A DNA stretch of 64,000 bases, from assembly GCF_030384885.1 (NCBI RefSeq), contig NZ_CP128613.1; one strand, written 5' to 3'. The translations under genes were made by a program, and so were the position numbers. The stretch is from Escherichia coli. Its GTDB lineage: Bacteria; Pseudomonadota; Gammaproteobacteria; Enterobacterales; Enterobacteriaceae. Positions 32,784 to 58,280 of this stretch are shown here, piece by piece. The notes beneath the pieces are model-generated. The model searched no databases. It saw only the letters and a program-made list of their open reading frames with translations, and was not told the origin of the DNA. Numbering within the stretch: position 1 is the stretch's first letter; every line of letters starts with the position of its first letter.

Positions 32784-32864
32784 GTAAAAATTATATTTCA
32801 GGACAAGAAGTTATGCTCGAGTCAAGCTAATGAATTGCTTAACGCAAGGAATAAAAACGTATTG

Positions 32865-36864: not shown

Positions 36865-38430
36865 TTACTTGATATCTTTCACGCGCATACCGTTGATCTG
36901 TTCATCCGTGATGGTATTACCCGCTTTAAAGTAATCAACCACCGCGTGATAAACGTAATAACCGCCCGTCGTATTGCGCGCTTTACCCTCGGTAAACGCG
37001 GTAAAACCATCTCCACCATCAGCAAGGAAACTCTGAGTGGCAATGTGGTAAACCGTCGCATCTTCAATCGGTTCGCCATTCAGAGTCAGCGAGATAACCC
37101 GCTGACCAACCGGCTTGCTGCTGTCGTACTTCATTTCCAGGCCTTTCGATACCTGTAAAACGCCATTACTTAAACTTGCGCCGTGTTCCATCAAACTGCG
37201 TAATTGTTTACCCGTGAGTTCCATCGTCACCAGTTCGTTGGGGAACGGGAAGGTACTGATGACGCCACCCATCGTAATTGCACCCGCCGGGATCTCATTG
37301 CGGATACCGCCAGAGTTGGTTAACGCCAACTGGGTATTTTTACCCGCCGCTGCCAGCAAAGCGTCCGCCGCCAGATTCCCGAGAGAAGCCGATTCACCAT
37401 AGGCACGTTTCAATTCAACTGGCGATTGCGCCACCGTTTGCTGCACGACTTCATCCAGCTTTTTATTCCAACTATCAATCACCTGTTTTGTTTGCGGATC
37501 GGGCTTCCACTCGTCGGCGTAAAGGGTTTTAAGCTCGAAGTTTTTCACCGTAAAAGTGTGCGGCTTCTCTTTGTAGTCTAGAACCAGTTTACCCACATCA
37601 ATCCCGCCGCTGTCAGTGGAGAGGATTAACGTATTGCCGACTTTAATCGGTTCCGGCGTACCCACATGTGCATGCCCGGTGATCAAAATATCCAGCCCTT
37701 TCACCTGACTTGCCGTCTGAATATCTTTATCCAGTGCGCGGCGCACATCTGTGCCCCCCATACTGGACTGGCGGGCCGGAACACCTTCGTGAATCAGCGC
37801 AACGGTCAAATCAACCTTGCCTTTGAGTTCATCGATATAACGTTGTAGCCATTTAATTTCATCACGCGCCTCAATACCCACTCGCGTTGCCGCAGATACC
37901 GTATCATTAAAGGCAAATACACCGTGCAAACCAATCACGCCAATTTTCACGCCGTCTTTTTCAATGATGGTATAGGGCTTATCCCAGAATGATTTACTGC
38001 TGTTCTGATAAAAAACATTACCCTGCACAATCGGGAATTTTGCCTGACTCAACTGTAATAACGTATTGTCCCAGCCGTGATCAAATTCATGATTACCTAT
38101 AGTGGCCGCATCGAACGGCATGGTATTCATAATATCGATAATCGCCTTGCCTTTAGTCAGGCTGCTAATATACGGCCCGGTAAAATAGTCACCCGCATCA
38201 AAAAACCAGGTCGCTTTGTTTTTAGCTTTTTCTTGTTTAACAAGCGTAGTGATATTTGCCCAGCCGCCAATATCTCGTTTACCGTCAGCAATCCACGGCA
38301 CTTTATAAGGCTCTACATGTGCATGGAGGTCGTTGGTATAAATGATGGTGACATCTTTGGCGCAAGCCCAAAACGGCAGTGTTAATGCGATACCCGCAGC
38401 AAGCATTTTAATTTTCATAAACAATCCCAT
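36865..38430 (-). CDS. UshA/CpdB-family periplasmic nucleotidase (paralog A)
   Basis: Signal peptide [20 protein letters not shown]; metallophosphatase motifs [26 protein letters not shown]; C-terminal 5'-nucleotidase-type domain (…[13 protein letters not shown]…). Confidence 0.85.
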
Positions 38431-38550
38431 CCAGTGAGATAAAGGATTGCTACATTACGTTCTGAAAGGCTTTTTTATGTGAGAATACTCACATCCAGAG
38501 GCGATAACTGTAGGACAAAATCAACGACCTTATGAAATCGTTGGTGATAT

Positions 38551-39678
38551 ATGTCAAATCTGTTTGCGATTAATGTCTGTAAAACGTTCGGTTGTCGAAA
38601 TTTGGGATTGGCCTCATCGGAAGATTACAGTTGGCCAGACTATAAACTGGGTTTTCCGGCACTGCACTGCCAGGCATGCGGAAGTTACCCCCCTTTGTTT
38701 GATGAACAACAATTTCGTGACTGGTTGTCAGTTCACATGACTGCGTGTGCCATAGAAACAGGGCATTTTTGTCCATCATGCTATTGTAAAGAAAAGATTT
38801 TTTATGGCCACAACCCGCAGGGAACACAACGCGTTCAATGCCGTTCATGCAAAAAAGTCTGGACTCCGAAACAGCAGCCAGCAAGAGAAATTACGTATCC
38901 CCAGTCCATTGAAACCGTTCAACTGTTCATGCCCTTTCAAGGAGCCAGCGCAGTACAAAAGCTCTATGTTTTAGTCAGTCTTGACGCCACTCGTGGCAAC
39001 ATCCTTCATCTCTCCACGAATTATACGCAACATCAGACAGGAGACAGTCTGCGGTACAGTTACAGAGGCAATACAGAACCAACTGAGCACCATAGCGATA
39101 TTGCGCAGAGGGTAGATATGCGTGAAGCACAATTCTTGCGCCGGAGCCAGTTCGATGAAATTCAGTATGGCAGTGCTGTGCTCAAGCGCAACGGCAAGGG
39201 AGCCATACTACGCCCGGTTATCACGGCACACGGGCATTTCAGAATACTGAAAATCCGCTTTCCACATGTCAAAACGCATATCATTTCACACGAATGTTTT
39301 CTGAGAGGCGCAATTATTACAGCCTGGGCAGATCAGTTCCGCCAACAACAAGGCGAACTTTGGTTCGTAGAGGAAGAAATCAGCGACCGTAATGCTGATA
39401 TTCCCTGGCATTTTCAGGGAACGACATACCATGGTTGGTGGCAAAATCAGTGGCAACGCTGGGGGCAGGGGAATAACAGCAAGATGGTCTGCCTGCTCAC
39501 AGGAGTCTCCTTAGAAAGGGGCGCAAATGTTTCTCTGGCAACCAGTCGTTGCTTTATCACATGGCTGACAGACCAACACGACTTTACCCAAAGCGCGTTA
39601 TTATCCGCAGGTCGCGTAACGAAAATGCTGACCTCACTGGCGTTAAAATACAATGAATCGCTCACTCCATCTTGTTAG
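38551..39678 (+). CDS. Hypothetical cysteine-rich protein with N-terminal zinc-ribbon motifs (transposase-like zinc ribbon?)
   Basis: 375 aa; C-x4-C, C-x2-C, C-x2-C…C-x2-C spacing including FYGHNPQGTQRVQCRSCKKVW, resembling IS1 InsA / IS1595-type ribbons; remainder unassigned. Confidence 0.6.
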   Translation: MSNLFAINVCKTFGCRNLGLASSEDYSWPDYKLGFPALHCQACGSYPPLFDEQQFRDWLSVHMTACAIETGHFCPSCYCKEKIFYGHNPQGTQRVQCRSCKKVWTPKQQPAREITYPQSIETVQLFMPFQGASAVQKLYVLVSLDATRGNILHLSTNYTQHQTGDSLRYSYRGNTEPTEHHSDIAQRVDMREAQFLRRSQFDEIQYGSAVLKRNGKGAILRPVITAHGHFRILKIRFPHVKTHIISHECFLRGAIITAWADQFRQQQGELWFVEEEISDRNADIPWHFQGTTYHGWWQNQWQRWGQGNNSKMVCLLTGVSLERGANVSLATSRCFITWLTDQHDFTQSALLSAGRVTKMLTSLALKYNESLTPSC

Positions 39679-39907
39679 TCAATACACTCGACAAACGACC
39701 ATAAATTAATGGGATCACTATTTCTCATTTAATTAAATATATGAATGTATGACTGAAAAATATAATCACAGTCAATGTTTAATTAATAACATTATTTGTT
39801 ACTAAGATCACATAATACTTTCCTGACCTATGTTTACATAAAAATAAGACACGGTGTTCCTTTTATTTAAATAATTCAACCAATGTAACAACCCCTATCA
39901 AGGAGGG

Positions 39908-41461
39908 ATGATGAGAACTGTATTTACGACTTTATCAGTCATATTCAGCGTGATGTTTTCTCACAGTATACTAGCTCAGGACGTTACTATTTATTATACG
40001 AATGATATTCACGCACATGTCAATCCGGCAAAAATTCCCGCTGTTGATAAGAACAGACTTGTAGGTGGTATGGCTAATATTGCAGGCATCGTTAATGAAG
40101 CGAAGAAAAAAAACAAAGATGTCTTTTTCTTTGATGCAGGCGACTATTTTACCGGTCCGTATATCAGTACCCTGACCAAAGGTGAAGCTATTATTGATAT
40201 CATGAACACCATGCCCTTTGATGCGGTGTCCGTTGGTAATCACGAGTTCGATCACGGCGTGCCCAATATGGTATCTCAGTTATCAAAAGCAAAATTCCCC
40301 ATTCTGCTGGGAAATATTTACTACACCGATACAAATAAACCAGTTTGGGATCATCCGTGGACCATTATCGAAAAAGATGGTTTAAAGATTGGTGTGATTG
40401 GATTGCATGGTGCATTCGCTTTCTATGATACAGTCGCGGCAAAAGCACGTGAAGGCGTAGAAGCCAGAGACGAAATTAAATATTTAAATAAAGCACTTGC
40501 AGAATTAAAAGGTAAAGTCGACATTACCGTTTTGCTAATTCACGAAGGTGTTCCGGCGCGTCAATCAAGCTTTGGTAGTAAAGATGTGGAGCGGCTACTA
40601 CAGGCAGATATTGAGACAGCTAAAAAAGTGAATGGTGTTGATGTCTTAATTACCGGTCACGCACATGTCGGAACACCGCAACCAATAAAAGTTAATAACA
40701 CATTAATTGTATCTACCGATGCATACGGCACCGACATCGGAAAACTTGTGCTTGATTACAATCCGAAAACAAAGAAAATTGATAGTTATAATGGTGAGTT
40801 AATCACCATCTTTGCAGATCAATTTAAACCTGACACCATCGTTCAAAATACTATCGATAAATGGAGCATAAAGCTTAACAAAATAACACAGGAAGTTGTC
40901 GGCCATTCTCCCGTAGTTTTAACACGTGAGTATGGCAGTTCTTCTTCTACCGGTAACCTTATTCTAGATGCAATGATGGAAAAAACACCTGATGCCATTG
41001 CCGGATTTCAAAATAGCGGTGGGATGCGAGCTGATTTTCCTAAAGGTGATATCACACTGGGAGATGTTATTAGCACATTCCCCTTTAATAATGACCTCAT
41101 CGAGATGGATTTGACGGGCCGCGATCTCAAATCATTGATGACGCATGCAACCAATCTAACTAACGGTGTGTTACAGGTTTCAAAAAGCGTTGCGGTTGTC
41201 TATGACAGCAAAAAACCACTCAACCAACGGTTAATCTCTTTCACCATTAACGGCAAACCCGTGGAAGATAATCAAACATATCGTATTGCCACGCACTCCT
41301 TTTGTGCCAGTGGTGGTGACGGTTTTGAAGCATTTTTGAATGGAAAAAATGTGAAGACGATACCGGGAACAACCTCGGCGGAATCTATCATCGATTATTT
41401 CAAAAATCATAAACCTGTCACCCCAGACTTAACTAAACGAGTCATGGACGTCGCCAAATAA
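39908..41461 (+). CDS. UshA/CpdB-family periplasmic nucleotidase (paralog B, most divergent)
   Basis: Signal peptide, same metallophosphatase motif set ([26 protein letters not shown]); AGGAGG RBS at 39901. Confidence 0.85.
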   Translation: MMRTVFTTLSVIFSVMFSHSILAQDVTIYYTNDIHAHVNPAKIPAVDKNRLVGGMANIAGIVNEAKKKNKDVFFFDAGDYFTGPYISTLTKGEAIIDIMNTMPFDAVSVGNHEFDHGVPNMVSQLSKAKFPILLGNIYYTDTNKPVWDHPWTIIEKDGLKIGVIGLHGAFAFYDTVAAKAREGVEARDEIKYLNKALAELKGKVDITVLLIHEGVPARQSSFGSKDVERLLQADIETAKKVNGVDVLITGHAHVGTPQPIKVNNTLIVSTDAYGTDIGKLVLDYNPKTKKIDSYNGELITIFADQFKPDTIVQNTIDKWSIKLNKITQEVVGHSPVVLTREYGSSSSTGNLILDAMMEKTPDAIAGFQNSGGMRADFPKGDITLGDVISTFPFNNDLIEMDLTGRDLKSLMTHATNLTNGVLQVSKSVAVVYDSKKPLNQRLISFTINGKPVEDNQTYRIATHSFCASGGDGFEAFLNGKNVKTIPGTTSAESIIDYFKNHKPVTPDLTKRVMDVAK

Positions 41462-41495
41462 AATATCATTTATCAGTCTATTTATTTAACAAGGA

Positions 41496-43121
41496 ATGCG
41501 AATGAAAACAGTGCAGCGTACTTTACTTGCCGCAACATTGCTGACTATTTTTTCGGTCTCGGTCATGGCGCAGGATGTCACGATTATTTATACAAATGAT
41601 CTTCACGCTCATGTGGATTCTTATAAAGTGCCGTATATCGCAGACGGAAAACGCGACATTGGCGGCTTTGCCAATATATCTACTTTAGTAAAACAAGAGA
41701 AAGCGAAAAATAAAGCCACCTTTTATTTTGATGCTGGAGACTATTTCACCGGCCCTTATATCAGCAGTCTGACAAAGGGCGAAGCAATAATTGACATTAT
41801 GAATACCATGCCTTTTGACGCAGTATCAATCGGTAATCATGAGTTTGACCATGGCTGGGATAATGCCCTGCGACAATTAAGCAAAGCGAATTTTCCTGTT
41901 TTATTGGGCAATGTTTATCATAAAGAGAGTGAAAAACCCTTCTGGAACAAGCCCTACACCATCCTGGAAAAAGATGGCATCAAGATTGGTATTATTGGGC
42001 TACACGGCGTATTTGCATTTAATGATACGGTCTCGGAGCTCTCTCTCCAGGGACTCGATAATGACAATAATAACCGCTTTGATAAATCTTCCGAGACCCT
42101 TAAGAATCAGGGGATTGAAGCACGTGATGAAGTGAAGTATTTGCAGCATTATATCGACGAGTTACGTGATAAGGTTGACCTCACTGTGGCGCTGGTTCAT
42201 GAAGGCGTTCCGGCGCGTCAGTCCAGCATTGGCAATACAGATGTTAGACGCGCTCTTGATAAAGATATTCAAACCGCTAGCAAGGTGAAAGGATTGGATA
42301 TTCTGATTACCGGGCATGCCCACGTCGGAACGCCAGAACCAATCAAAGTCGGCAACACCTTAATCCTTTCGACTGATAGTGGCGGTATCGATATTGGTAA
42401 ATTAGTCCTTGATGTCAACCCTACAGCTCGTACCCATAAAATGAAGAGCTTTGAGCTGAAAACAGTTTATGCCGATGAATGGATACCCGATCCAACGACA
42501 CAAAAAGTTATCAATGGCTGGAATAAAAAACTGGCGGATATTGTACGCCAACCAGTGGGTGAATCATCGATTGCATTAACTCGCGCCTATGGTGAGTCAT
42601 CGCAACTAGGCAACCTGTTTACCGATGCAATGCTTGTCGCTGCTCCGACTGCACAGATTGCATTGATAAACTCCGGCAGCTTACGTGCGGATATAAATGC
42701 AGGCACGATTACCTTTGGCGACATTACCAGTACATTCCCCTTCAAGAATGAACTTACTGAAATGGATCTCAGCGGTAAGGATCTGCGTAACCTACTGGAA
42801 CACGGGGCATCGCTTACCAATGGCATCCTGCAAATGTCAAAAGGCGCAGAAATGCGCTATACCCCGCAGAAACCAGTAGGTCAGCGCATAGTATCTTTTA
42901 AAATTAATGGTGAAGAGATCGTTGATACGAATATTTACCATGTTGCAACAACGACTTTCCTTGCACTGGGGGGCGATGGTTTTCTGGCATTCAAAGAAGG
43001 GAAAAATGTTCAGGTCCGCGCCGGAAAAAACATGTCCGATGTCGTGATCGATTATTTGAAGAAAGGCCACAAGATTACGCCTGCACAGGTAAATGAAATG
43101 CGGGTGGACGTTAGCAAATAA
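41496..43121 (+). CDS. UshA/CpdB-family periplasmic nucleotidase (paralog C, with ~27 aa Asn/Asp-rich insert)
   Basis: Signal peptide; same motif set; insert ELSLQGLDNDNNNRFDKSSETLKNQG absent from paralogs A and B; real start probably ATG 41502. Confidence 0.85.
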   Translation: MRMKTVQRTLLAATLLTIFSVSVMAQDVTIIYTNDLHAHVDSYKVPYIADGKRDIGGFANISTLVKQEKAKNKATFYFDAGDYFTGPYISSLTKGEAIIDIMNTMPFDAVSIGNHEFDHGWDNALRQLSKANFPVLLGNVYHKESEKPFWNKPYTILEKDGIKIGIIGLHGVFAFNDTVSELSLQGLDNDNNNRFDKSSETLKNQGIEARDEVKYLQHYIDELRDKVDLTVALVHEGVPARQSSIGNTDVRRALDKDIQTASKVKGLDILITGHAHVGTPEPIKVGNTLILSTDSGGIDIGKLVLDVNPTARTHKMKSFELKTVYADEWIPDPTTQKVINGWNKKLADIVRQPVGESSIALTRAYGESSQLGNLFTDAMLVAAPTAQIALINSGSLRADINAGTITFGDITSTFPFKNELTEMDLSGKDLRNLLEHGASLTNGILQMSKGAEMRYTPQKPVGQRIVSFKINGEEIVDTNIYHVATTTFLALGGDGFLAFKEGKNVQVRAGKNMSDVVIDYLKKGHKITPAQVNEMRVDVSK

Positions 43122-43133
43122 TAAAAAAATTAT

Positions 43134-43165
43134 AATGCCATTCATTCACTGAATGGCATTATTTT
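43134..43165 (+). terminator. Terminator-like hairpin after nucleotidase paralog C
   Basis: atgccattca-ttcac-tgaatggcat followed by T-rich tract. Confidence 0.5.
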
Positions 43166-43198
43166 CTCTAAATCAACAATAGATAATGAGATATATTT

Positions 43199-44059
43199 AT
43201 GTGTATAAAAAAGCACGGGATAGCTTTATCGATTCTATTAATACCTTGCATTGGAAACGCTCAGAAAATTAAAAGTGAGGAAGGCTGGTTACATCAAAGC
43301 TTGAATGTCATTGGTCGCACAGACTCTCGCTTTGGCCCAAGGCTGACTAACGACCTCTACCCTGAATATACTGTAGCAGGAAGAAAAGACTGGTTTGATT
43401 TTTATGGTTATGTTGATCTACCAAAATTCTTTGGCGTCGGCAGTCACTATGATGTTGGGATCTGGGATGAGGGCTCACCACTATTTACGGAAATAGAACC
43501 TCGGTTTTCCATTGACAAATTGACCGGATTAAATCTTGCGTTCGGCCCTTTTAAAGAATGGTTCATTGCAAACAACTATGTCTATGATATGGGTGACAAC
43601 CAGTCATCCCGGCAAAGTACATGGTATATGGGGCTTGGTACAGATATCGACACGGGTCTACCAATTAAGCTTTCTGCCAATATATACGCCAAGTATCAGT
43701 GGCAAAACTATGGTGCCGCTAATGAAAATGAATGGGACGGATATCGATTCAAAATAAAATATAGCATTCCTCTTACCCATTTATTCGGAGGGCGATTGGT
43801 ATACAATAGTTTTACTAACTTTGATTTTGGATCCGATCTTGCGGACAAATCACACAATAATAAACGAACCAGTAATGCTATTGCTTCAAGCCATATCCTT
43901 TCCCTGCTATATGAACACTGGAAATTTGCATTTACACTACGTTATTTTCACAACGGTGGACAATGGAATGCTGGGGAGAAAGTTAACTTCGGAGATGGTC
44001 CATTTGAATTAAAAAACACAGGATGGGGAACCTATACTACTATTGGTTATCAATTTTAA
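43199..44059 (+). CDS. Tsx-family nucleoside-specific outer-membrane channel paralog
   Basis: Signal peptide, C-terminal Phe; long colinear blocks matching Tsx as recalled (…KDWFDFYGY…[12 protein letters not shown]…[14 protein letters not shown]…[26 protein letters not shown]…). Confidence 0.85.
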
Positions 44060-44275: not shown

Positions 44276-46708
44276 CTACAACAACTGCGCCAGACGGTTA
44301 ATATCCGACTGAATCGCCCCGGCGGTGACGTCGCGCCCTGCGCCTGGCCCACGGATCACCAGCGGGTTGTCGCGATACCAGCGGCTTTCGATGGCAAAGA
44401 CGTTATCGCACGGTAGTAGTGATGCCAGCGGATGGTCTTCTCGCACCGCTTCCACGCCTACTCGCGCTTTGCCGTTAGCATCGAAACGCGCCACGTAGCG
44501 CAACACCAGCCCCATTTCACGGGCCGCTTCCAACCGTTGTACCATCTGCTCATTAAGTTCATCGCCATTTTCAAAGAAATGGTCGATGCTGCCACCTTCG
44601 CAATGGGTTGGCACCAGTGATTCAACACGCACCTGGTCCGGTTCAATGTTGTAACCCGCTTCACGCGCCAGAATCACCAGCTTGCGCATCACATCTTTGC
44701 CGGAGAGGTCATCACGCGGGTCAGGTTCAGTTAAGCCCTGCTGCCACGCCTGATCCACCAGCTCAGTAAACGGCACGCTACCGTCGAATTGCAGGAACAG
44801 CCAGGAGAGCGTGCCGGAGAAGATCCCGCTGATCGACAAAATAGTGTCGCCGCTGTCGATCAGATCGCGCACGGTATGGTTGATCGGCAAACCTGCGCCG
44901 ACGGTGGCGTTGTATAGCCAGTGACGCCCGGTTTTTTCGAACGCGTCGTGGATCTGTCGATATTTATTGCTGTCGCTGGCTCCCGCCAGTTTGTTGGCAC
45001 TGATGACGTGGAAACCGTGGCTGGCGAAATCGAGATACTGATCAGCAAGCTGCTGGCTGGCAGTAACGTCCAGCACCACTAAATCATCATACGGATGGGC
45101 ACGCATCCACAGGAACAGCGACTCTTCATCCTGTTCGACGGCTTCATCATTAAAGAAGGCTAGCGCACGGCTGGCGTCCAGCCCGTCATAGCTCAACAGG
45201 CTGCGACGGCTGTCCACCACGCCTGCCAGCACAAATTCAAAGCCGGTGCGCGCCGAGAGCGTGCTCTGCTCACGGGCGAACAGTTCCAGCCAGCGGGAAC
45301 CGATATTGCCCTTACCGAACAATACCAGGCCGATGCGTTTTTCTGCGCGGAAGACGGACTGATGCAGCCCCTGAATCAGGCTTTCGGTAGGTCCGGTACG
45401 CAGTACTGCCACCAGGCTGATGCCGTCATCGGACTGCCAGGTAAATTCGACCGGCTGGCCTTTCAGTTGCTGCCAGAAGCGGTGGCAATGCAGCGGGTTA
45501 CGGGTGACGCCTGCACCAACCATCGCCACCAGCGCCAGCCCCTGACGCAGGCGCAGTTCGCCAGGTAATCCTGCTTCGTCGAGGATTTTCAGCGCACTAT
45601 CGGCCACTTCCGAGGTGTAGCAAAATTGCAGCAACTGGCGATCGTTATGCACGCCAACCGCCAGTGGGCGCACCTGAGCACGTTTCAGGATTTGGTCGAT
45701 CTCTTTATGCGCCAGTTTGAAATCCTGACTGGCGGGCACCTGAAACTCAATCAAACAGACATCATCGTGGCTGGTGACAATACGCGCGCCAGTACCGGAA
45801 GCCAGCACGCGTTCAATGCGCGTGGAACCTTGATCCGGCGTGTAGCTACAGCGCAGCTGCAGGTCGATTTCACTGCCAGAAACTGGCTGTAAAGTACGGG
45901 CGTGAAGAACGGGGGCCGCCAGACGCGCCAGTTCACTGGCTTCATCAAGACGCAGCAATGGCAGCAGGCAGGCATCTTTCACTTTACGCGGGTCAGCGCT
46001 GTATACCCCGGCGACGTCGCTCCAGATGGTTACGCGGGAAACTCCCGCCAGCGCACCGATTTGTGTCGCGGAATAGTCGGAACCGTTACGCCCCAGCAGC
46101 ACCGTTTCACCGGCGTTGTTACGGCTGATAAACCCGGTCACCACCAGACGTTTGCCCGGATGTTGTACCAGTAGCTGTTGCAGCAACGGGTAAGAAAGCC
46201 CTTCATCAACCTGCGGCTGCGCGGCGCGTTCAGCGCGTAAAAACTCGCGGGCATCAAGCCAGGCCGCAGGCAATCCTTGTTGATTAAGTACCGCAGACAT
46301 CAGGCGCGCCGACCACACTTCACCGTGGCCCACCACTTCCGCATACACCGCATCGTTAATACCGCTGTCGAGCAGCGCCGCCAGGCGTTCCAGATCGCTG
46401 ACAAAAGCGCTAATGAGGCTATCGGCTTCTTCGGCGGGTAGCAGGCCGCTAATCAGATCGCACTGATAGCGACGCAGCGTTTGTTGAACCTGATGCGCAG
46501 AGAGACGATCGGTCTGGCTTAGTTTCAACCAGTTAATCAACTGGTTAGTGGTGCTACCGGCGGCGGAAACCACCATCATATCGTCAGGCTGAGAGTACTC
46601 CGCCATAATGCCCGCGACACGCAAATAACACTTCACATCAGCCAGACTACTGCCACCAAATTTATGCAGTTGACGACCTTTCGCCCCTGCCTGCGCAATC
46701 ACACTCAT
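44276..46708 (-). CDS. metL: Bifunctional aspartokinase II / homoserine dehydrogenase II
   Basis: 810 aa, MSVIAQAGAKGRQLHKFGGSSLADVKCYLRVAGIMAEY... Confidence 0.95.
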   Translation of the reverse strand: MSVIAQAGAKGRQLHKFGGSSLADVKCYLRVAGIMAEYSQPDDMMVVSAAGSTTNQLINWLKLSQTDRLSAHQVQQTLRRYQCDLISGLLPAEEADSLISAFVSDLERLAALLDSGINDAVYAEVVGHGEVWSARLMSAVLNQQGLPAAWLDAREFLRAERAAQPQVDEGLSYPLLQQLLVQHPGKRLVVTGFISRNNAGETVLLGRNGSDYSATQIGALAGVSRVTIWSDVAGVYSADPRKVKDACLLPLLRLDEASELARLAAPVLHARTLQPVSGSEIDLQLRCSYTPDQGSTRIERVLASGTGARIVTSHDDVCLIEFQVPASQDFKLAHKEIDQILKRAQVRPLAVGVHNDRQLLQFCYTSEVADSALKILDEAGLPGELRLRQGLALVAMVGAGVTRNPLHCHRFWQQLKGQPVEFTWQSDDGISLVAVLRTGPTESLIQGLHQSVFRAEKRIGLVLFGKGNIGSRWLELFAREQSTLSARTGFEFVLAGVVDSRRSLLSYDGLDASRALAFFNDEAVEQDEESLFLWMRAHPYDDLVVLDVTASQQLADQYLDFASHGFHVISANKLAGASDSNKYRQIHDAFEKTGRHWLYNATVGAGLPINHTVRDLIDSGDTILSISGIFSGTLSWLFLQFDGSVPFTELVDQAWQQGLTEPDPRDDLSGKDVMRKLVILAREAGYNIEPDQVRVESLVPTHCEGGSIDHFFENGDELNEQMVQRLEAAREMGLVLRYVARFDANGKARVGVEAVREDHPLASLLPCDNVFAIESRWYRDNPLVIRGPGAGRDVTAGAIQSDINRLAQLL

Positions 46709-46710
46709 TT

Positions 46711-47871
46711 TTACCCCTTGTTTGCAGCCCGGAAGCCATTTTCCAGGTCGGCAATTAAATCTTCGCCATCTTCAATACCGGTGGAGATACGCAGCAGCGT
46801 CTCGGAGATCCCGGCGGCAGCACGCGCTTCTGGTGCCATGCCTGCATGTGTCATGGTTGCGGCGTGAGAGATTAAACTTTCCACTCCCCCTAATGATTCC
46901 GCCAGCGTAAACAACGACAACCCGCCCAGGAAACGACGCAGCGTCTGCTCATCGCCATCCAGTTCAAAACTCAACATTGCGCCAAAGCCTTTTTGCTGGC
47001 GCGCGGCAATTTCATGCCCCTGATTTTCCGGCAGCGACGGGTGATACAGTTTTTTCACTAACGGCTGGGTTTGCAGATATTTCACTATCGCCTGCGCGTT
47101 GCGCTGCGCCAGCTCCATACGCGGCACCAGCGTTCGCAAACCGCGCAGCAACAAATAACTGTCAAACGCGCCGCCCGTCACGCCAATATTGTTTGCCCAC
47201 CAGGCCAGTTCGGTGACAACGTCCGGGTCTTTAGCAATCACCACGCCAGCCACTACATCTGAGTGACCGTTCAGATATTTCGTGCATGAATGCAACACCA
47301 GATCGGCACCTAATGCCAGTGGATTTTGTAATGCCGGGCTTAAGAAGGTGTTATCCACCACGCTCACCGCCCCGACTTCCCTTGCCAGATGGCAGATTTT
47401 CGCAATATCCACGACGCGTAACAATGGATTACTTGGGCTTTCTACCAGTACTAGTTTGGGTTTTTCTGCCAGTGCAGCCTGCAATGCCTGCTCATCTCCT
47501 TGATCAACAAACAGCACGCGATAACAGCCGCGTTTCGCCAGGCTGTCGAACAGGCGATAGCTGCCGCCGTAGCAGTCGTGCGGCGCAACCAGCAAATCGC
47601 CAGGTTTCAAAAAGACGGTCGTTACCAGGTGGATGGCAGACATGCCGGTATTAGTCAGCACTGCACCAGCACCGCCTTCCAGTTCAGCCAGCGCACGCTG
47701 AACCACATCGCGCGTTGGGTTGCCGCGACGCGAGTAATCATGCGCGCGCGGTTCATTAAATCCGGTAAAGTTATAGGTGCTGGAAAGATGGATGGGAGGG
47801 ACAACGCAACCATACTGTTCGTCGTCATTTAACCCGCTACGCACTGCAATGGTGGCCTGTTTACGCGTCAT
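46711..47871 (-). CDS. metB: Cystathionine gamma-synthase
   Basis: MTRKQATIAVRSGLNDDEQYGCVVPPIHLSSTYNF...; start at internal Met giving 386 aa. Confidence 0.95.
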   Translation of the reverse strand: MTRKQATIAVRSGLNDDEQYGCVVPPIHLSSTYNFTGFNEPRAHDYSRRGNPTRDVVQRALAELEGGAGAVLTNTGMSAIHLVTTVFLKPGDLLVAPHDCYGGSYRLFDSLAKRGCYRVLFVDQGDEQALQAALAEKPKLVLVESPSNPLLRVVDIAKICHLAREVGAVSVVDNTFLSPALQNPLALGADLVLHSCTKYLNGHSDVVAGVVIAKDPDVVTELAWWANNIGVTGGAFDSYLLLRGLRTLVPRMELAQRNAQAIVKYLQTQPLVKKLYHPSLPENQGHEIAARQQKGFGAMLSFELDGDEQTLRRFLGGLSLFTLAESLGGVESLISHAATMTHAGMAPEARAAAGISETLLRISTGIEDGEDLIADLENGFRAANKG

Positions 47872-48147
47872 GTGATGAAGTTCCCTGGGCTTGGTCGGTG
47901 AAATGTCAGGCACCAGAGTAAACATTGTGTTAATGGACGTCAATACATCTGGACATCTAAACTTCTTTGCGTATAGATTGAGCAAATCCCAAATAGCCGT
48001 TAAAATTATATGCATTATCACGCCGACAGGTGCATTACACGATGTCACGGTAACGCCTGTACGGTAAACTATGCGGGTTTACGGTCAGTACCCACATAAA
48101 TTGTGTGGTCTGATCTCAATTTATTGACGAAGAGGATTAAGTATCTC
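47872..48147. promoter_or_regulatory. metB / metJ divergent promoter region with met-box-like repeats
   Basis: acatctggacatctaaac contains AGATGT repeats typical of MetJ boxes; between divergent metB and metJ. Confidence 0.45.
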
Positions 48148-48465
48148 ATGGCTGAATGGAGCGGCGAATATATCAGCCCATACGCTGAGCACGGCAAGAA
48201 GAGTGAACAAGTCAAAAAGATTACGGTTTCCATTCCTCTTAAGGTGTTAAAAATCCTCACCGATGAACGCACGCGTCGTCAGGTGAACAACCTGCGTCAC
48301 GCTACCAACAGCGAGCTGCTGTGCGAAGCGTTTCTGCATGCCTTTACCGGGCAACCTCTGCCGGATGATGCCGACCTGCGTAAAGAGCGCAGCGACGAAA
48401 TCCCGGAAGCGGCAAAAGAGATCATGCGTGAGATGGGGATTAACCCGGAAACGTGGGAATACTAA
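48148..48465 (+). CDS. metJ: Methionine repressor MetJ
   Basis: [66 protein letters not shown]..., 105 aa. Confidence 0.95.
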
Positions 48466-48524
48466 AGCGGAAAAGAGCGGCGCGGAGTTAACCAGCCGCT
48501 TTTTTCATACATGGACGTTTAACT

Positions 48525-49133
48525 ATGAAATACAGGCTACTGATCCTCAACCTGCTGGTTTCTGTGCCTGCCTTTGCCTGGCAGCCGCAAACTGGCGACA
48601 TCATCTTTCAAATCTCTCGCTCATCGCAAAGTAAAGCGATCCAACTGGCGACCCATTCCGATTACAGCCACACCGGTATGCTGGTGATGCGTAACAAAAA
48701 GCCCTACGTTTTTGAAGCGGTCGGCCCGGTGAAATACACCCCGCTCAAGCAGTGGATCGCCCATGGTGAAAAGGGTAAATACGTTGTTCGCCGCGTTGAA
48801 GGCGGACTGAGTGTTGAACAACAGCAAAAACTGGCGCAAACGGCAAAACGTTATCTCGGAAAACCGTACGATTTCAGCTTCTCATGGAGCGACGATCGCC
48901 AGTACTGTTCGGAAGTGGTGTGGAAGGTTTACCAGAATGCGCTGGGGATGCGCGTGGGTGAACAGCAAAAACTGAAAGAGTTCGATCTCAGCAACCCGCT
49001 GGTTCAGGCGAAGCTCAAAGAACGTTACGGGAAAAATATTCCGCTTGAGGAAACGGTGGTCTCGCCACAAGCCGTTTTCGATGCGCCACAACTCACCACA
49101 GTCGCCAAAGAATGGCCGCTGTTTTCGTGGTAA
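48525..49133 (+). CDS. yiiX: YiiX-family secreted protein (permuted papain-like fold)
   Basis: 202 aa with signal peptide MKYRLLILNLLVSVPAFA. Confidence 0.85.
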   Translation: MKYRLLILNLLVSVPAFAWQPQTGDIIFQISRSSQSKAIQLATHSDYSHTGMLVMRNKKPYVFEAVGPVKYTPLKQWIAHGEKGKYVVRRVEGGLSVEQQQKLAQTAKRYLGKPYDFSFSWSDDRQYCSEVVWKVYQNALGMRVGEQQKLKEFDLSNPLVQAKLKERYGKNIPLEETVVSPQAVFDAPQLTTVAKEWPLFSW

Positions 49134-49136
49134 TGG

Positions 49137-49225
49137 ATGATGAAAAAAATAATTCCCGCCGTAGTCTGTTTGTTGCTTTGTAGTTGCACGACCTTTCCGC
49201 AAGCTGTCGCTCCGGCAGGGAAAGA
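49137..49225 (+). pseudogene. Lipoprotein gene start, apparently truncated by the adjacent H-repeat element
   Basis: MMKKIIPAVVCLLLCSCTT has a signal peptide with lipobox LLCSC; the reading frame then runs antisense into the transposase gene. Confidence 0.3.
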
Positions 49226-50362
49226 TTACGAAAGCCCGCTCCCAGCAAGGACTGACGCCAGATACTTTCTGTCCATGGCTGCTTTTCGCATCTTACGTCT
49301 TAACCCTGCCTTGAATACCTTATCATTCGTTAAAATATTAATAGCGATGTGCCGTATCCCTGAAAATAATTCTGCGGCGTTTCCTCTTCGTATTTTGCAG
49401 TCGTCTTCATTCATTACCACGTCCAGACGCCAGTGCAGCTTATTCTCCACGTGCCAGTGGTTTCGGATTGCTGTGGCGAACTTTTCTGCGGTTAAATCAG
49501 CAGAACTGATATAATATCTGACCGTCATTTCTGGCTCTTTCTTTTGTTCTGCTATTATTGACCGAAAGGAGAATGCCACGCATAATTTCTTCAGTCCTTT
49601 CCATTCAAACGTGAAATCAATAAGTTCATCACGGACATCGCAAACAATATGAAGACGGATTTCTTCTCTGCCGTGACTCTTTTCACTCATTGCGTAACTG
49701 TCATGCTCTGGATTATTTAATTCTTTCAGCGGAAATTTTTCCTCGAAGGCTTTATTTAGCCGCCCCTGGTTTCCTTTTACAGCGAATACATAATCACCGC
49801 CCTGTTTTTGTATCTTCTCTGCAATATCTTTCTGGCAACCCATCGCATCAGTTGTGATGATTTTTCCTTTAATATCCAGCATGTTAAGAAGTTCAGGGAT
49901 AGCTGTAATTTCATTGGATTTCTCATCCGTCCTGATCTGTCCGATGACCAGACTGTGCATTGTTGAGAATGCACTAATGACATGAATCGCTCCCCTGCGG
50001 CGACTCTTGTCATAAGAATGCCGGAGTGTTTTTCCATCAATTGCGATGACGTCTTTATCATCTGAAGTATGGCAATCTCGCATCCAGTTAATAAAGCACT
50101 CGTGAAATTTTGAAGGACTGATACAGGATACAACTCTGGCGATGGTATCGTGAACAGGAATACCATTTTCAAAATCACCATATTGTTTTAAAAAATCGCG
50201 ATGTGCTTCCCCAAAATCCTCTATATGTTCCCAGCCTTCTGCACCAGAAATAACGGCGCAAATAGTCAACAGTAGAATATCCGATAATTTATGTTCCACT
50301 TTCCAGGTTTGTCTGTAATCGGGGATAATAGAAATATGTTCCATCAATTTTTTAAGTTCCAT
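49226..50362 (-). mobile_element. H-repeat-associated (ISAs1-family) transposase gene, intact ORF
   Basis: 378 aa, [59 protein letters not shown]... matches Rhs-associated H-rpt proteins as recalled; element ends not mapped. Confidence 0.8.
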
Positions 50363-50469
50363 TCTTTTCTCCTTAATTATGTAAGGAGTATTTGATCATG
50401 TATAAGCAATAAAAAAACAGCTTCAGGCAATGAGGAATATCTCAATTTTTAAACATAAAATGCGAATTG

Positions 50470-50905
50470 TTTAGTACAAAAAAGCAGCGTTAAGTGAGTA
50501 GGCCACCGGAACCTCCCCGACAGCCTCTCGCAGAACCGTACGTGAAACTCTCGCTTCATACGGCTCCCGTCAGGCAAACGCGCTTCCTGGTCCTGCTTTC
50601 CAGTGGGCAAACAACTCCGGCTTCTCTTTTGACAGCCTTTCCATTAGCTGACACGCCTTCGTCTTTCTATACCGCAGGGTTTTATATTTCTTTCTCGCCC
50701 ACGCAATCAGCGTCAGATTAATATATCTGCATACTTTCTTCATCGCTGATTTGTGGTATCTCGCGTAATAATTCAGCCACCCCAATATTATCGGATTCAG
50801 CCACTTCGCAATATCTTCGAGACTCATCTCCACCCTGCGTCTGATCCACAGTTTCCTGAGTTTTCCAATCATGCCTTCGGGTTTACTCATCTCACTGTAT
50901 CTCAC
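50470..50905 (-). mobile_element. Group II intron 3' remnant: maturase C-terminal fragment plus domain V
   Basis: ORF fragment has maturase motif WLNPIILGWLNYYARY; just downstream, minus-strand 50566-50533 reads GAGCCGTATGAAGCGAGAGTTTCACGTACGGTTC, a 34-nt domain-V-type hairpin. Confidence 0.6.
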
Positions 50906-51111
50906 ATAGGATCAGATCTCGTCTGATCGTTCCCCCTGCGCTCACTACCATGGCTCTTTACCACAGCAGCCGGGGTTGTTTGGGACCGACTTCCGACAGC
51001 AGATCCCGGTGGGCCTGCCACCATCTCTTCACAAGCTTATGCTTATTACATGCAAAACGTCCCGTTTTGCATCTTTGTGCCTACGGCACACCGTGATCTT
51101 TCCCTGTCGGC

Positions 51112-51330
51112 ATGTTGACCACTGACGAATGGGGTAGTTACGCTAGAGAGTTACCAAAGGAGAAGCATCTGACTGGTAAGATTTTTACTCAGCATATTGA
51201 GCGTAACAATCTGACCCTGAGAACCCGAATCAAACGTCTGGCCCGCAGAACCATCTGTTTCTCGCGTTCTGTAGAACTTCATGAAAAAGTCATCGGTGCT
51301 TTTATCGAAAATATATGTTCTACTAATTGG
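51112..51330 (+). pseudogene. IS1-family InsB transposase C-terminal fragment
   Basis: …DEWGSYARELPKEKHLTGKIFTQHIERNNLTLRTRIKRLARRTICFSRSVELHEKVIG… parallels the InsB C-terminus (…[37 protein letters not shown]…); no N-terminal part present. Confidence 0.6.
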
Positions 51331-51395
51331 AGTCATCACCCTTCTGATGAGCTTTCCTTGGATGATTACCAGACTGAATACATAGCCAAAGATTT

Positions 51396-51755
51396 TTACC
51401 TCATTCTGCTTTTTTTTCTCAAATGACATATATTATATTTTACATCATATTCATAGGCATATGACATTCCCCCGCCCCCCATTATGTCATTGTGGGTTGA
51501 TGTTGGGCTTTCATAAAAAAATACATCTTTTTTTGAACTAGCATTAATTATATTTACTTTATATATTAAAATATTTTCTCCATCTGGAAATATTTTAGCC
51601 ACACAATATAAAGCAGCCAAATCCGAATTACTTAAAAATATATTGTCATCACTCATAACTCCAGCCATTAAATGACTGGAGACTAAAGCAAGGAAATAAC
51701 AACATTGTATTGCCTTCATTTTAATTACTCCCTTGCCTGATAATTGTAACTCCAT
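51396..51755 (-). CDS. Putative Rhs-toxin immunity protein (secreted/membrane-anchored); 3' end may be truncated by the IS1 fragment
   Basis: ORF directly downstream of and overlapping the Rhs C-terminal tip; internal start [21 protein letters not shown] looks like a signal peptide; AT-rich. Confidence 0.45.
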
Positions 51756-52275
51756 TCCCTTTAGCTTTGGGATTATATTTTAGATAGGTGTTATTTGGTG
51801 TTCCCAAGTAACTACTGTATTCTTTTTTTCCCATTCCATTCATATAAGAATTCGTTAAATCTTTGCTTGAAAAATTTAGACTATCATAAACATCATTTTC
51901 TTTTGTTACTTTATTTCCTTTATCGTCAGAGTAAAAACCGTGAGTGTGATAATCGCCTACTCTCTCTGAACCTTCAGGGCATTTTATATTTCGCAAGTCT
52001 ACACTATCATTATCATTTGAACTTATCGGATTCATGGGGAAATATTCACCTTGCTTCTTACATATTAGTCCACCATATTCTTTATTCTCGTTAATTGATT
52101 CTCCATTACACATTGCCAATGCAAATATTCCAATATCATCTATATTTTTTGATTTAAATTCATATAATCCTAATGGATCCATGCCATTCACCGGGCTCAG
52201 CGGATATGTATACAGGTTCCATCCCCCCTTCAGCCCAATCGGATCCTGAGTGATATACCGCCCCTGTAACCGTCC
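51721..52275 (-). pseudogene. Rhs core-end plus C-terminal toxin tip (RhsA-CT-like), detached from any intact rhs core
   Basis: Open frame reads [36 protein letters not shown]…; tip contains [16 protein letters not shown], resembling the K-12 RhsA C-terminal region as recalled. Confidence 0.6.
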
Positions 52276-52664
52276 TCACCGGGAAACAGGTGCTCAAAAT
52301 ACAGGCTTCTGCCGCCGTTATCACTGAGTATCAGAGTGTTATCGCGCAGCTGCAAGCGGATATCCGCAGGCATTTTCCAGCCGGGGCCGAGGCTCCCCAC
52401 CGGCGCGGGCGTTTTTGTCCGGTAACTGCTGTAGGTGCGGGAGAGGATGAACGGCAGCGGGCCGGGCAGGGCAAGGTCGGTTTCGCCGGGAAGGACCTTC
52501 GCACCGAGCAGCGGATTGACCGGATGGCCGGACGTCACCCCGCCGGGGCACACCGAACAGGCCACGCCGGTGGGGGCACCAATACGTACCCCGGCAGAAC
52601 CCTGGACAATGGGGCCACCATACTGCGTCATGTCGCCCTGACGCGCCGCCGGTTTTCCGCTCAT
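52230..52664 (-). pseudogene. Rhs N-terminal fragment (PAAR-like region), 144 codons then stop
   Basis: MSGKPAARQGDMTQYGGPIVQGSAGVRIGAPTGVACSVCPGG… matches Rhs N-termini; frame differs from the downstream core-end/CT frame. Confidence 0.7.
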
Positions 52665-52783
52665 CGTAAAATCCTTTTAAAATAAATAAGAACCAGAAGC
52701 CTAGCGCCAGTCAACAACAGGAAATGATAATGAGTTAACACCCCGGAATGTTTCAGAATTTATAAAAGGCAAATTACAGGCAC

Positions 52784-52811
52784 AAAAAAAGCGCCGTGCG
52801 GCGCTTTTTTC
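52784..52811 (-). terminator. rpmE rho-independent terminator
   Basis: aaaaaaagcgccg-tgc-ggcgcttttttc; on the minus strand the hairpin is followed by a T-run. Confidence 0.6.
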
Positions 52812-52823
52812 GGAAATCCGGTC

Positions 52824-53075
<252 letters not shown>

Positions 53076-53079
53076 CTAA

Positions 53080-55437
<2,358 letters not shown>

Positions 55438-55592
55438 TGCGCAAACGATGCGAGGCGGATCGAAAAATTCAATATTCATCACACTTTTCATGAAAATTCT
55501 GTAACCGTTTTCACGCGCTATCTGCTAAAAATGTTGCCGATGTGAAGTAAACATGGAAGTAGTACGCCTGCCGTGCCGGGCGAGGAGTGAGT

Positions 55593-56618
55593 GTGAAAGC
55601 GAAGAAGCAGGAAACTGCCGCGACCATGAAAGACGTTGCCCTGAAGGCAAAAGTCTCTACAGCGACCGTCTCCCGAGCATTAATGAATCCCGATAAAGTC
55701 TCCCAGGCCACCCGTAATCGGGTTGAAAAAGCGGCCCGGGAAGTAGGTTATTTGCCGCAGCCTATGGGGCGCAACGTCAAACGTAATGAATCCCGCACCA
55801 TTCTGGTGATTGTCCCGGATATCTGCGATCCCTTCTTTAGCGAAATTATTCGCGGTATCGAAGTTACGGCGGCAAATCACGGATATCTGGTGCTGATTGG
55901 CGACTGTGCGCATCAAAATCAGCAGGAAAAAACCTTTATCGATTTGATTATCACCAAGCAAATTGATGGCATGTTGCTGCTGGGTTCAAGGCTGCCGTTT
56001 GATGCCAGCATTGAGGAACAGCGTAATCTGCCGCCGATGGTGATGGCGAACGAATTTGCGCCGGAACTGGAGCTGCCTACAGTTCATATCGACAATCTGA
56101 CCGCCGCATTTGATGCAGTAAATTATTTATATGAGCAAGGTCATAAACGGATTGGCTGTATAGCCGGTCCCGAAGAGATGCCGCTGTGTCACTACCGCCT
56201 GCAAGGCTACGTTCAGGCGCTGCGTCGCTGCGGCATTATGGTTGATCCGCAATACATCGCCCGGGGCGACTTCTCCTTTGAAGCCGGAAGCAAAGCGATG
56301 CAACAGCTGCTTGCTCTTCCGCAACCGCCTACTGCTGTCTTCTGCCATAGCGATGTAATGGCGCTCGGCGCACTTTCTCAGGCAAAACGCCAGGGGCTGA
56401 AAGTCCCGGAAGACCTTTCCATAATCGGTTTTGATAACATCGACCTGACGCAATTTTGTGATCCGCCGCTGACAACCATCGCGCAGCCGCGTTACGAAAT
56501 CGGTCGGGAAGCTATGCTGTTATTGCTTGATCAAATGCAGGGGCAACACGTTGGCAGTGGCTCTCGTTTAATGGACTGCGAACTTATCATCCGGGGATCA
56601 ACGCGCGCGTTACCTTAA
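55593..56618 (+). CDS. cytR: LacI-family transcriptional repressor CytR
   Basis: GTG start after GAGGAG RBS; VKAKKQETAATMKDVALKAKVSTATVSRAL… HTH. Confidence 0.92.
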   Translation: MKAKKQETAATMKDVALKAKVSTATVSRALMNPDKVSQATRNRVEKAAREVGYLPQPMGRNVKRNESRTILVIVPDICDPFFSEIIRGIEVTAANHGYLVLIGDCAHQNQQEKTFIDLIITKQIDGMLLLGSRLPFDASIEEQRNLPPMVMANEFAPELELPTVHIDNLTAAFDAVNYLYEQGHKRIGCIAGPEEMPLCHYRLQGYVQALRRCGIMVDPQYIARGDFSFEAGSKAMQQLLALPQPPTAVFCHSDVMALGALSQAKRQGLKVPEDLSIIGFDNIDLTQFCDPPLTTIAQPRYEIGREAMLLLLDQMQGQHVGSGSRLMDCELIIRGSTRALP

Positions 56619-56709
56619 AGTAAACCTTTAAGACTGCCGTGACTGGTCAAAGGCCCGCCGCTTAAGTAACATGGCGGGCTGACGAACGAATAAATACAGC
56701 GAAACGATA

Positions 56710-57657
56710 GTGGCACAACGAGATTATGTACGCCGCAGCCAACCGGCACCTTCGCGGCGAAAAAAAAGCACCTCACGGAAAAAGCAACGAAATCTGCCTG
56801 CGGTTTCTCCCGCAATGGTCGCTATTGCTGCCGCCGTTCTTGTGACCTTTATCGGTGGTCTGTACTTCATTACGCATCACAAGAAAGAAGAGTCCGAGAC
56901 ACTGCAAAGCCAGAAAGTGACCGGAAACGGATTACCACCGAAACCAGAAGAACGCTGGCGCTACATTAAAGAGCTGGAAAGTCGCCAGCCGGGTGTGCGT
57001 GCACCAACAGAACCTTCTGCCGGTGGTGAAGTGAAAACGCCGGAGCAACTGACACCAGAACAACGTCAGCTTCTTGAACAAATGCAGGCTGATATGCGCC
57101 AGCAACCAACGCAACTGGTTGAAGTCCCATGGAATGAACAGACGCCGGAACAGCGTCAGCAAACGCTTCAACGTCAGGCACAACAGCGTCAGATTCAGGC
57201 GGCTCAACAGCAGCAGCGTCAGGCTGAGCAGGCATATCAACAACCGCGTACCGCGCAAGCGCAGCAACCACCGCGCCAGACGCAGCAGACTCGCCAGGCG
57301 GCTCAGCAGCCGTACCAGGATCTCCTGCAAACGCCAGCACACACTGCCGCGGCGCAGCCGAAGTCACAGCAAGTCGCGCCTGTTAGCCGGGCCGCTGACG
57401 CGCCAAAACAGACGGCGGAGAAAAAAGACGAGCGGCGCTGGATGGTACAGTGCGGTTCGTTCCGAGGCGCGGAACAGGCAGAGACGGTACGTGCTCAGCT
57501 GGCGTTCGAAGGCTTTGACTCGAAAATTACCACCAACAATGGCTGGAATCGTGTGGTGATTGGCCCGATTAAAGGGAAAGAAAATGCCGACGGCACCCTG
57601 AATCGCCTGAAGATGGCGGGTCATACAAACTGTATTCGACTCGCTACCGGGGGTTGA
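56710..57657 (+). CDS. ftsN: Cell division protein FtsN (Gln-rich linker, C-terminal SPOR domain)
   Basis: GTG start; …QRDYVRRSQPAPSRRKKSTSRKKQRNLPAVSPAMVAIAAAVLVTFIGGLYF…; Q-rich periplasmic region. Confidence 0.92.
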   Translation: MAQRDYVRRSQPAPSRRKKSTSRKKQRNLPAVSPAMVAIAAAVLVTFIGGLYFITHHKKEESETLQSQKVTGNGLPPKPEERWRYIKELESRQPGVRAPTEPSAGGEVKTPEQLTPEQRQLLEQMQADMRQQPTQLVEVPWNEQTPEQRQQTLQRQAQQRQIQAAQQQQRQAEQAYQQPRTAQAQQPPRQTQQTRQAAQQPYQDLLQTPAHTAAAQPKSQQVAPVSRAADAPKQTAEKKDERRWMVQCGSFRGAEQAETVRAQLAFEGFDSKITTNNGWNRVVIGPIKGKENADGTLNRLKMAGHTNCIRLATGG

Positions 57658-57749
57658 AACCCTCAAAATCCCCCCCATCTATAATTGCATTATGCCCCGT
57701 ACTTTTGTACGGGGTTTGTACTCTGTATTCGTAACCAAGGGGTCAGCTC

Positions 57750-58280
57750 GTGACAACTATAGTAAGCGTACGCCGTAACGGCCATGTGGTCATCGCTGGT
57801 GATGGTCAGGCCACGTTGGGCAATACCGTAATGAAAGGTAACGTGAAAAAGGTCCGCCGTCTGTACAACGACAAAGTCATCGCGGGCTTTGCGGGCGGTA
57901 CTGCGGATGCTTTTACGCTGTTCGAACTGTTTGAACGTAAACTGGAAATGCATCAGGGCCATCTGGTCAAAGCCGCCGTTGAGCTGGCAAAAGACTGGCG
58001 TACCGATCGCATGTTACGCAAACTTGAAGCACTGCTGGCAGTCGCGGATGAAACCGCTTCACTGATCATCACCGGTAACGGTGACGTGGTGCAGCCAGAA
58101 AACGATCTTATTGCTATCGGCTCCGGCGGCCCTTACGCCCAGGCTGCGGCGCGCGCGCTGTTAGAAAACACTGAACTAAGCGCCCGTGAAATTGCTGAAA
58201 AGGCGTTGGATATTGCAGGCGACATTTGCATCTATACCAACCATTTCCACACCATCGAAGAATTAAGCTACAAAGCGTAA
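57750..58280 (+). CDS. hslV: ATP-dependent protease subunit HslV
   Basis: 176 aa, [38 protein letters not shown]…. Confidence 0.95.

Follow-up and report, generated by a model that had tools for sequence, protein, structure and literature searches.

The interval between yiiX and rpmE/priA (positions 49134-52775) in the window, a 64,000-nucleotide stretch of the Escherichia coli contig NZ_CP128613.1 (assembly GCF_030384885.1), is very probably a lineage-specific decayed allele of the known yiiX-rpmE rhs locus, produced by nested insertions that were followed by deletions. Each part of the interval can be assigned to a described family, as a member or as a remnant, and the site itself has been catalogued; only the allele series within one clone is new. 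An initial annotation, made from the sequence of the window, had described one decayed Rhs locus hit by successive insertions. A decayed Rhs locus carrying mobile elements is indeed present, and the five components named there (an H-repeat transposase gene, a group II intron, a piece of IS1 InsB, an Rhs remnant, and toxin and presumed immunity genes) are found in their proposed places with strong homology matches, all on the minus strand except the IS1 fragment (Table 1). The insertions are nested, however, and not side by side. In addition, the fragmentation of rhs and of the intron, which had been ascribed to insertions, results instead from two microhomology deletions, both elements being complete in strain 2013C-4282.

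Strain 2013C-4282 (NZ_CP027579.1) is the only near-identical complete genome, matching positions 24000-48999 of the window at 100.0% identity in one piece, while the runner-up genome reaches 98.4%. It retains a full intron of 1,887 nt with an ltrA gene of 1,323 bp, as well as an intact rhs gene of 4,185 bp. When positions 48000-54000 are aligned to this genome, they fall into three blocks of 99.9-100% identity that are separated by two gaps in the window.

The yiiX-rpmE rhs site

The locus lies in the gene order fabR-sthA-oxyR ... metF-(island)-metL-metB-metJ-yiiX-(locus)-rpmE-priA-cytR. Relative to K-12 and PI24, the sequence departs from the backbone right after the yiiX stop codon, at 49134, and returns to it at CAGGCAC, near 52776, within the rpmE terminator region. 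This position is well established as a site of rhs elements: yiiX-priA is listed as an rhs locus (locus 11 in the table of PMC2935791; Jackson et al. 2009), b3936-b3937 is listed likewise (locus 10 in Table 6 of PMC3032704; Archer et al. 2011), and the member of O157:H7 EDL933 at the yiiX-rpmE/priA site is Z5488 (PMC7216683). Occupancy was counted over 5,426 complete E. coli genomes, to which all genome counts below refer. An 82-bp gene stub directly after yiiX is found in 2381 of them and a module composed of a DUF4329 toxin tip and dsORF-f3 in 2164, which means that an rhs element occupies the site in about 40% of complete E. coli genomes.

The stub explains the lipoprotein-type signal sequence that the initial annotation had noticed after yiiX, since this sequence is the genuine 5' end of a TIGR02117-family gene. 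Positions 49137-49215 (MKKIIPAVVCLLLCSC..) correspond to the opening ~26 codons (MKKIIPAVVCLLLCSCTTFPQAVAP), with start codons at 49137 and 49140, of a 624-bp gene that is intact in PI24, where it fills the yiiX-rpmE spacer and no rhs is present. The full-length TIGR02117/DUF2459 protein (~207 aa) is missing from the window, where only these codons of the signal-peptide region are left, and the gene body is found in 289 genomes. It had further been proposed that the H-repeat truncated this gene. The gene is truncated and does adjoin the H-repeat, but the first cut is attributable to the IS1H/rhs element, which would have left 87 bp, and the H-repeat would then have trimmed 5 bp more. In O26:H11 11368, ECOR29 and TUM14771, the stub is 5 bp longer (GTAAAC); next come a complete IS1H, beginning with its left inverted repeat, and then dsORF-f3 and rhs. 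Comparison of the interval across strains, which the initial annotation had suggested, thus recovers intermediate alleles in PI24, O26 11368, ECOR29 and EC42405, and strains with an intact rhs gene and strains with an intact lipoprotein gene at this site both exist.

The spacer between yiiX and rpmE is only 60 bp long in K-12. This spacer (L003 5227-5286, TAATACGACCAAAATTCAGGCAC) is closer to the rhs-upstream end (window 52760-52782, GGCAAATTACAGGCAC) than to the 3' end of the TIGR02117-family gene, a likeness suggesting that the short K-12 spacer may be a secondary loss and not the ancestral state.

Nested insertions

The outermost of the mobile elements is represented by a piece of IS1H-like IS1 that comprises the C-terminal 45 codons of InsB (open reading frame (ORF) from 51112) and the right inverted repeat (GGTGATGACTCC, read directly on the minus strand at 51340). 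Its left 530 bp are absent, leaving it short of a complete IS1 with InsAB' and both inverted repeats, whereas O26 11368 and ECOR29 carry a complete IS1 together with an intact rhs at the identical position. The right end of the H-repeat directly adjoins IS1 position ~531, and the two flanks of the H-repeat are 535 bp apart in the ancestral allele, in which the replaced stretch consists of 5 bp of stub sequence together with 530 bp of IS1H. As read from these alignments, the H-repeat sits in, and truncates, an older IS1H.

The H-repeat is an insertion sequence (IS) of the ISAs1 family. Its transposase matches NF033564 over profile positions 1-314 of 314 (E 1e-124; 415.6 bits against a cutoff of 70), and the Prokaryotic Genome Annotation Pipeline (PGAP) treats the gene as intact in the identical sequence of NZ_CP027579.1. 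Both terminal inverted repeats, the mapping of which had also been suggested, are located at 49216-49230 (CAGGGAAAGATTACG) and 51092-51106 (the reverse complement of CAGGGAAAGATCACG); they bracket the intron remnant, and the same ends are found in the comparison loci L002 and L005. The H-repeat would therewith have survived the decay of the locus with its transposase ORF and both inverted repeats intact. Its transposase copies in EC42405 and TUM14771 are frameshifted. Like other H-repeat/ISEc1-type members of the family, the element combines a 378-aa transposase (NF033564) and 15-nt terminal inverted repeats with an association with Rhs. Unlike them, it has a rare junction, a 535-bp adjacent deletion and an intron remnant that it carries along (1,891 bp as against ~1,292 bp), and it lacks a target duplication. 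No target-site duplication was detected at the H-repeat, the flanks of which (GCTCCGG and TCGGCATG) are not repeats, and this pattern points to insertion with an adjacent deletion, or to recombination between two copies.

Within the H-repeat, a group II intron was inserted 15 bp inside the end of the element, co-oriented with the transposase gene. The empty site of EC42405, which has the H-repeat without the intron and an intact rhs, reads ...GATCAC/TTAACG..., while the site in the window is occupied by GGTGTGCC...CCTACTCAC. The 3' boundary of the intron is defined to +/-1 nt, as the empty-site alleles differ (CACGTAACG in L002 and CACTTAACG in EC42405). Group II hallmarks are retained, namely a 5' GUGYG (GUGUG, in DNA GTGTG, at 51091) and a domain V/VI with a bulged A; Rfam models recognize domains V/VI at 50493-50568 (RF00029, minus strand, 62.8 bits) and a piece of domain I at 50905-51022 (RF01999, minus strand, 93.1 bits). 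A complete ribozyme with domains I-VI and a full reverse transcriptase/maturase are not found, LtrA keeping only its GIIM/X C-terminus.

ATCC 8739 has a single intron, located at the same H-repeat position in the RhsE region, and the full intron of 2013C-4282 is 96.2% identical to it over 1,887 nt. Because ATCC 8739 contains exactly one full-length intron, E.c.I9 (Table 2 of PMC3522654; Leclercq & Cordaux 2012), the name E.c.I9-type is used here; E.c.I2 and E.c.I9 have both been described as homing into the Rhs IS (PMC3522654). The intron agrees with E.c.I9 in this identity, in its insertion point within the H-repeat and in its orientation relative to the transposase gene. It differs in that the window copy lacks nt 217-1504; what it retains are the two splice-site ends, domains V/VI and the C-terminus of the maturase. 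Relics covering 159-193 nt from the 5' end of this E.c.I9-type intron (L001 6188-6380; window 50899-51091) are found at 99-100% identity in ~2,500 genomes, while at least 80% of the intron is found in only 83; such 5'-end relics are consistent with the old fixed intron fragments reported in PMC3522654.

This arrangement bears on a simpler history, in which the H-repeat, the intron fragment and the IS1 fragment entered an Rhs remnant that had already decayed, each by its own insertion and side by side, the H-repeat being an original downstream component of Rhs. The pieces are contiguous and mostly co-oriented, and H-repeats do occur inside Rhs elements at this locus elsewhere, lying between orphan tips in L002 and L006. 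Such a history is nevertheless highly improbable. The intron is nested between the left inverted repeat of the H-repeat and the transposase gene, and the IS1 piece is what is left of an IS1H that stands complete at the identical position in O26 and ECOR29. Furthermore, EC42405, which already has the H-repeat, and 2013C-4282, which already has the intron, both retain an intact rhs, which places the decay last. The H-repeat itself is only 95.6% identical to the L002 copy, and its junction is confined to 2013C-4282 and EC42405 (2 of the 5,426 genomes). The suggestion of the initial annotation that the H-repeat was inherited as the classical downstream part of Rhs therefore fails on the rarity of this junction and on the common allele, which has a full IS1H instead.

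Deletions within a single clone

The larger of the two gaps relative to 2013C-4282 is a deletion of 3,241 bp in rhs, which takes codons 134 to ~1213 and with them the whole YD-repeat shell; its junction at 52264-52266 shows CTG microhomology, and its length of 3n+1 shifts the reading frame. The smaller is a deletion of 1,288 bp (intron nt 217-1504; junction 50876/50877, TT microhomology) that takes most of domain I, domains II-III and the reverse transcriptase part of ltrA. As these parts are lost, the ribozyme and the reverse transcriptase would both be dead, and the intron would be able neither to splice nor to move.

The two junctions recur in other isolates. The draft GCA_025467095.1 (L010) is 100% identical to, and collinear with, window positions 44570-56872 (12,303 bp), both junctions included. 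A second draft, GCA_904842275.1 (L004), has the same rhs junction and encodes a 144-aa frameshift product. It has, however, a different intron deletion of 814 bp (L001 5109-5922) at a 7-bp CTCTGCC repeat, nested in the 1,288-bp deletion of the window, so that a single intron copy has been eroded twice within the clone, either independently or stepwise. A 106-aa product spanning the intron junction has in turn been deposited from a 4.74-Mb chromosome (WJS55427.1 / WP_289787403.1). A lookup by exact product led to no contig for this 106-aa protein and to a contig for its 100-aa variant.

Multicopy DNA of this kind raises the question of assembly. The rhs and intron fragments could be artefacts of repeats that were collapsed or skipped, the true locus being the 10.5-kb version seen in 2013C-4282. 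Both deleted segments do lie in multicopy DNA, since the intron is found in 4 places in 2013C-4282 and the rhs core in a median of 9 places per genome (6-kb query), and no complete RefSeq genome in the collection has the arrangement of the window in one piece. Such an error is hardly credible in view of the collinear identity of GCA_025467095.1, the shared rhs junction of GCA_904842275.1 and the deposited junction-spanning protein, and the junction overlaps of just 2-3 bp are unlike those of a repeat collapse. Because independent drafts and a deposited protein reproduce the junctions, the deletions are considered real, recent and polymorphic within one clone, and not assembly errors.

Order of events

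Taken together, the alleles suggest a history of five steps, of which we infer both the order and the functional consequences. The ancestral backbone would have carried the TIGR02117-family lipoprotein gene. An IS1H-flanked rhs element, consisting of rhs with a DUF4329/Tox-JAB-2 tip and dsORF-f3, would then have replaced that gene after nt ~87. The H-repeat would have arrived next, an IS-associated deletion shortening the stub by 5 bp and IS1H by its left 530 bp. The E.c.I9-type intron would thereafter have retrohomed to the site that it normally uses, 15 bp from the end of the H-repeat and in the orientation of the transposase. Finally, two deletions by illegitimate recombination in the window lineage would have removed 3,241 bp of rhs, with a frameshift, and 1,288 bp of the intron.

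Three points weigh against this history in its details. The order of the second to fourth steps rests on parsimony over a handful of genomes, without a phylogeny. No target-site duplication proves transposition of the H-repeat, and an origin by recombination is possible. The 1,288-bp deletion, moreover, may have started either from the full intron or from the form already lacking 814 bp.

With these qualifications, the decayed allele offers a clean worked example of IS1, an H-repeat and a group II intron nested in turn and then eroded at short microhomologies within a single clone, with intact, intermediate and decayed alleles all at hand for comparison. It supports the known points that the H-repeat behaves as a real insertion sequence, forming a new junction with an adjacent deletion, and that E.c.I9-type introns tend toward inactivation rather than proliferation. 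Its importance beyond annotation is small. In genome annotations of this site, the entries 144-aa 'YD repeat protein' and 100-106-aa 'maturase' stand for deletion products and not for genes.

The orphan module of toxin tip and presumed immunity gene

The deletion left rhs in two remnants. The N-terminal 133 codons (52664-52267) match NF041261 RHS_core positions 1-139 (E 5e-85), and the 3' remnant retains the PxxxxDPxGL motif (DPLGL here) that closes the core, with the DUF4329 tip next to it; the large YD-repeat core that forms the shell is missing from the window, 3,241 bp being absent relative to 2013C-4282 (L001). The presumed immunity gene dsORF-f3 starts 1 nt past the toxin stop codon. The tip and dsORF-f3 have a GC content of 28-33%, as against 57-69% in the rhs 5' remnant; an AT-rich tip next to a GC-rich core is the usual Rhs pattern. 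DUF4329 corresponds to the Tox-JAB-2 family, for which a nuclease or peptidase function has been predicted (Zhang et al., PMC3482391). Sequence searches of Pfam, NCBIfam and PDB gave no match for dsORF-f3, and the toxin tip had no significant PDB match; NCBIfam had nothing for the tip, dsORF-f3 or a 125-aa plus-strand ORF.

In its site, N-terminus, DPLGL motif, DUF4329 tip and dsORF-f3 partner, the window allele is like the E. coli yiiX-rpmE/priA rhs locus elsewhere. It is unlike it in the loss of the 3.2-kb YD-repeat shell and the broken frame, which leave a pseudogene and an orphan tip, and in the truncation of the flanking IS1H by the H-repeat. Judging from the coding sequence that remains, the window rhs should be incapable of yielding a deliverable Rhs toxin or a shell, while the toxin tip and dsORF-f3 would be intact as an orphan module only.

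It could be argued that this outcome was not neutral, in that a secreted effector became, through the deletion, a toxin-immunity or regulatory pair kept inside the cell and expressed from the nearby rhs promoter. The deletion removes almost exactly the shell, and neither the DPLGL motif nor the full DUF4329 tip nor dsORF-f3 carries a mutation; expression of an internal or orphan Rhs tip and its immunity gene as toxin-antitoxin or regulatory modules is described for Salmonella (PMC7043789) and for RhsFint-RhsFI of enterohaemorrhagic E. coli (EHEC; PMC7618764). A conceivable, if doubtful, route to such expression would be translational reinitiation at the GTG/ATG of 52191/52182, 39-48 nt downstream of the frameshift stop at 52230. 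Overall, a non-neutral deletion is unlikely. A promoter/terminator scan was at chance level, finding no more than in shuffled sequence (9 sites vs 7.9 +/- 3.3). The retained module is 100% identical to its parent, as would be expected of a very recent neutral deletion, and the simultaneous erosion of the adjacent intron by two different deletions suggests general decay.

The stronger proposal, drawn by analogy, that the shell deletion common to several isolates of the clone was selected and yielded a toxin-antitoxin-like or RNA-regulatory intracellular Tox-JAB-2/dsORF-f3 pair is quite improbable. If it were true, the pair would parallel EHEC RhsFint-RhsFI and the Salmonella orphan Rhs modules. 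Those modules, which have internal promoters (PMC7618764; PMC7043789), resemble the one described here in consisting of a C-terminal tip and a downstream partner with no delivery domain. They differ from it in belonging to other loci and other toxin families.

Two similarly named systems were considered as possible counterparts. The EHEC 'RhsF/RhsFI' (PMC7618764) was rejected as a representative of this locus, as it is ECs0604 in S-loop 44, and it serves as a mechanistic analogy only. An identity with Hill's 'RhsF' element, which the name dsORF-f3 might suggest, is not claimed.

Longer alleles of the locus exist in other strains (L002 4366-12880 and L006 3366-10035). They comprise a main rhs with a different tip (Sel1-repeat partner), an internal H-repeat, ybfB and a downstream orphan DUF4329/dsORF-f3. 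Beside these, the window-type allele, in which DUF4329 is fused to the main gene, looks like a product of C-terminal displacement.

Table 1. Features of the yiiX-rpmE interval and its backbone flanks in the window
Feature	Position	Strand	Evidence
yiiX, left backbone flank	48525..49133	+	NF007458, E 5e-107; annotated yiiX in identical 2013C-4282 sequence
TIGR02117/DUF2459-family lipoprotein-like gene stub	49134..49215	+	Collinear with intact 624-bp gene of PI24 (L007 4007-4630)
H-repeat including intron remnant, 1,891 bp	49216..51106	-	Inverted repeats; alignment to uninterrupted copies in L002 and L005
ISAs1-family transposase ORF, 378 aa, intact	49226..50362	-	NF033564; PF13808 and PF01609 in identical GCA_025467095.1 (L010) gene
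E.c.I9-type group II intron remnant, ~599 nt	50493..51091	-	Rfam; alignment to full 1,887-nt copy of 2013C-4282 (L001)
LtrA C-terminal remnant (maturase/X domain), 100 aa	50570..50872	-	TIGR04416 positions 289-353; PF08388 GIIM on identical GCA_025467095.1 (L010) product
IS1H-like IS1, right-hand 234 bp	51107..51340	+	NF033558 positions 155-199 of 199; alignment to full IS1H of L002 and L008
dsORF-f3, presumed immunity gene, 107 aa	51396..51719	-	RefSeq name 'RHS element protein dsORF-f3' in 2013C-4282 and others
rhs 3' remnant: last 27 core codons, then DUF4329/Tox-JAB-2 tip with helix-turn-helix (HTH) motif	51721..52266	-	Translation; Pfam DUF4329, E 2e-16
rhs 5' remnant: 133 native codons (PAAR-like/DUF6531 N-terminus), 11 out-of-frame codons, stop	52230..52664	-	NF041261; PF20148
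rhs upstream leader and right-hand accessory end	52665..52775	-	Comparison with K-12 and PI24
rpmE (52824-53036) and L31 leader (53043-53095), right backbone flank	52824..53095	-	

Neighbouring accessory regions

Elsewhere in the window, an accessory island of ~12 kb (31809-44059) separates metF and metL, which are neighbours in K-12. It encodes a hypothetical protein, a PdxR-like PLP-aminotransferase regulator, an alanine racemase, three 5'-nucleotidase paralogues, a 'cytoplasmic protein' and a Tsx-like porin, together with a serine hydroxymethyltransferase pseudogene that contains an internal stop. At least 80% of positions 24000-48999 is covered in just 2 genomes. A small accessory insert foreign to the K-12 order is located in the oxyR-argH interval (3119-5683), carrying an MFS transporter gene and manD (D-mannonate dehydratase). 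The expected RNA elements are present as well, comprising the OxyS small RNA at 2961-3070, the L31 (rpmE) leader listed in Table 1 and the ClpQY (hslVU) promoter element at 57695-57752.

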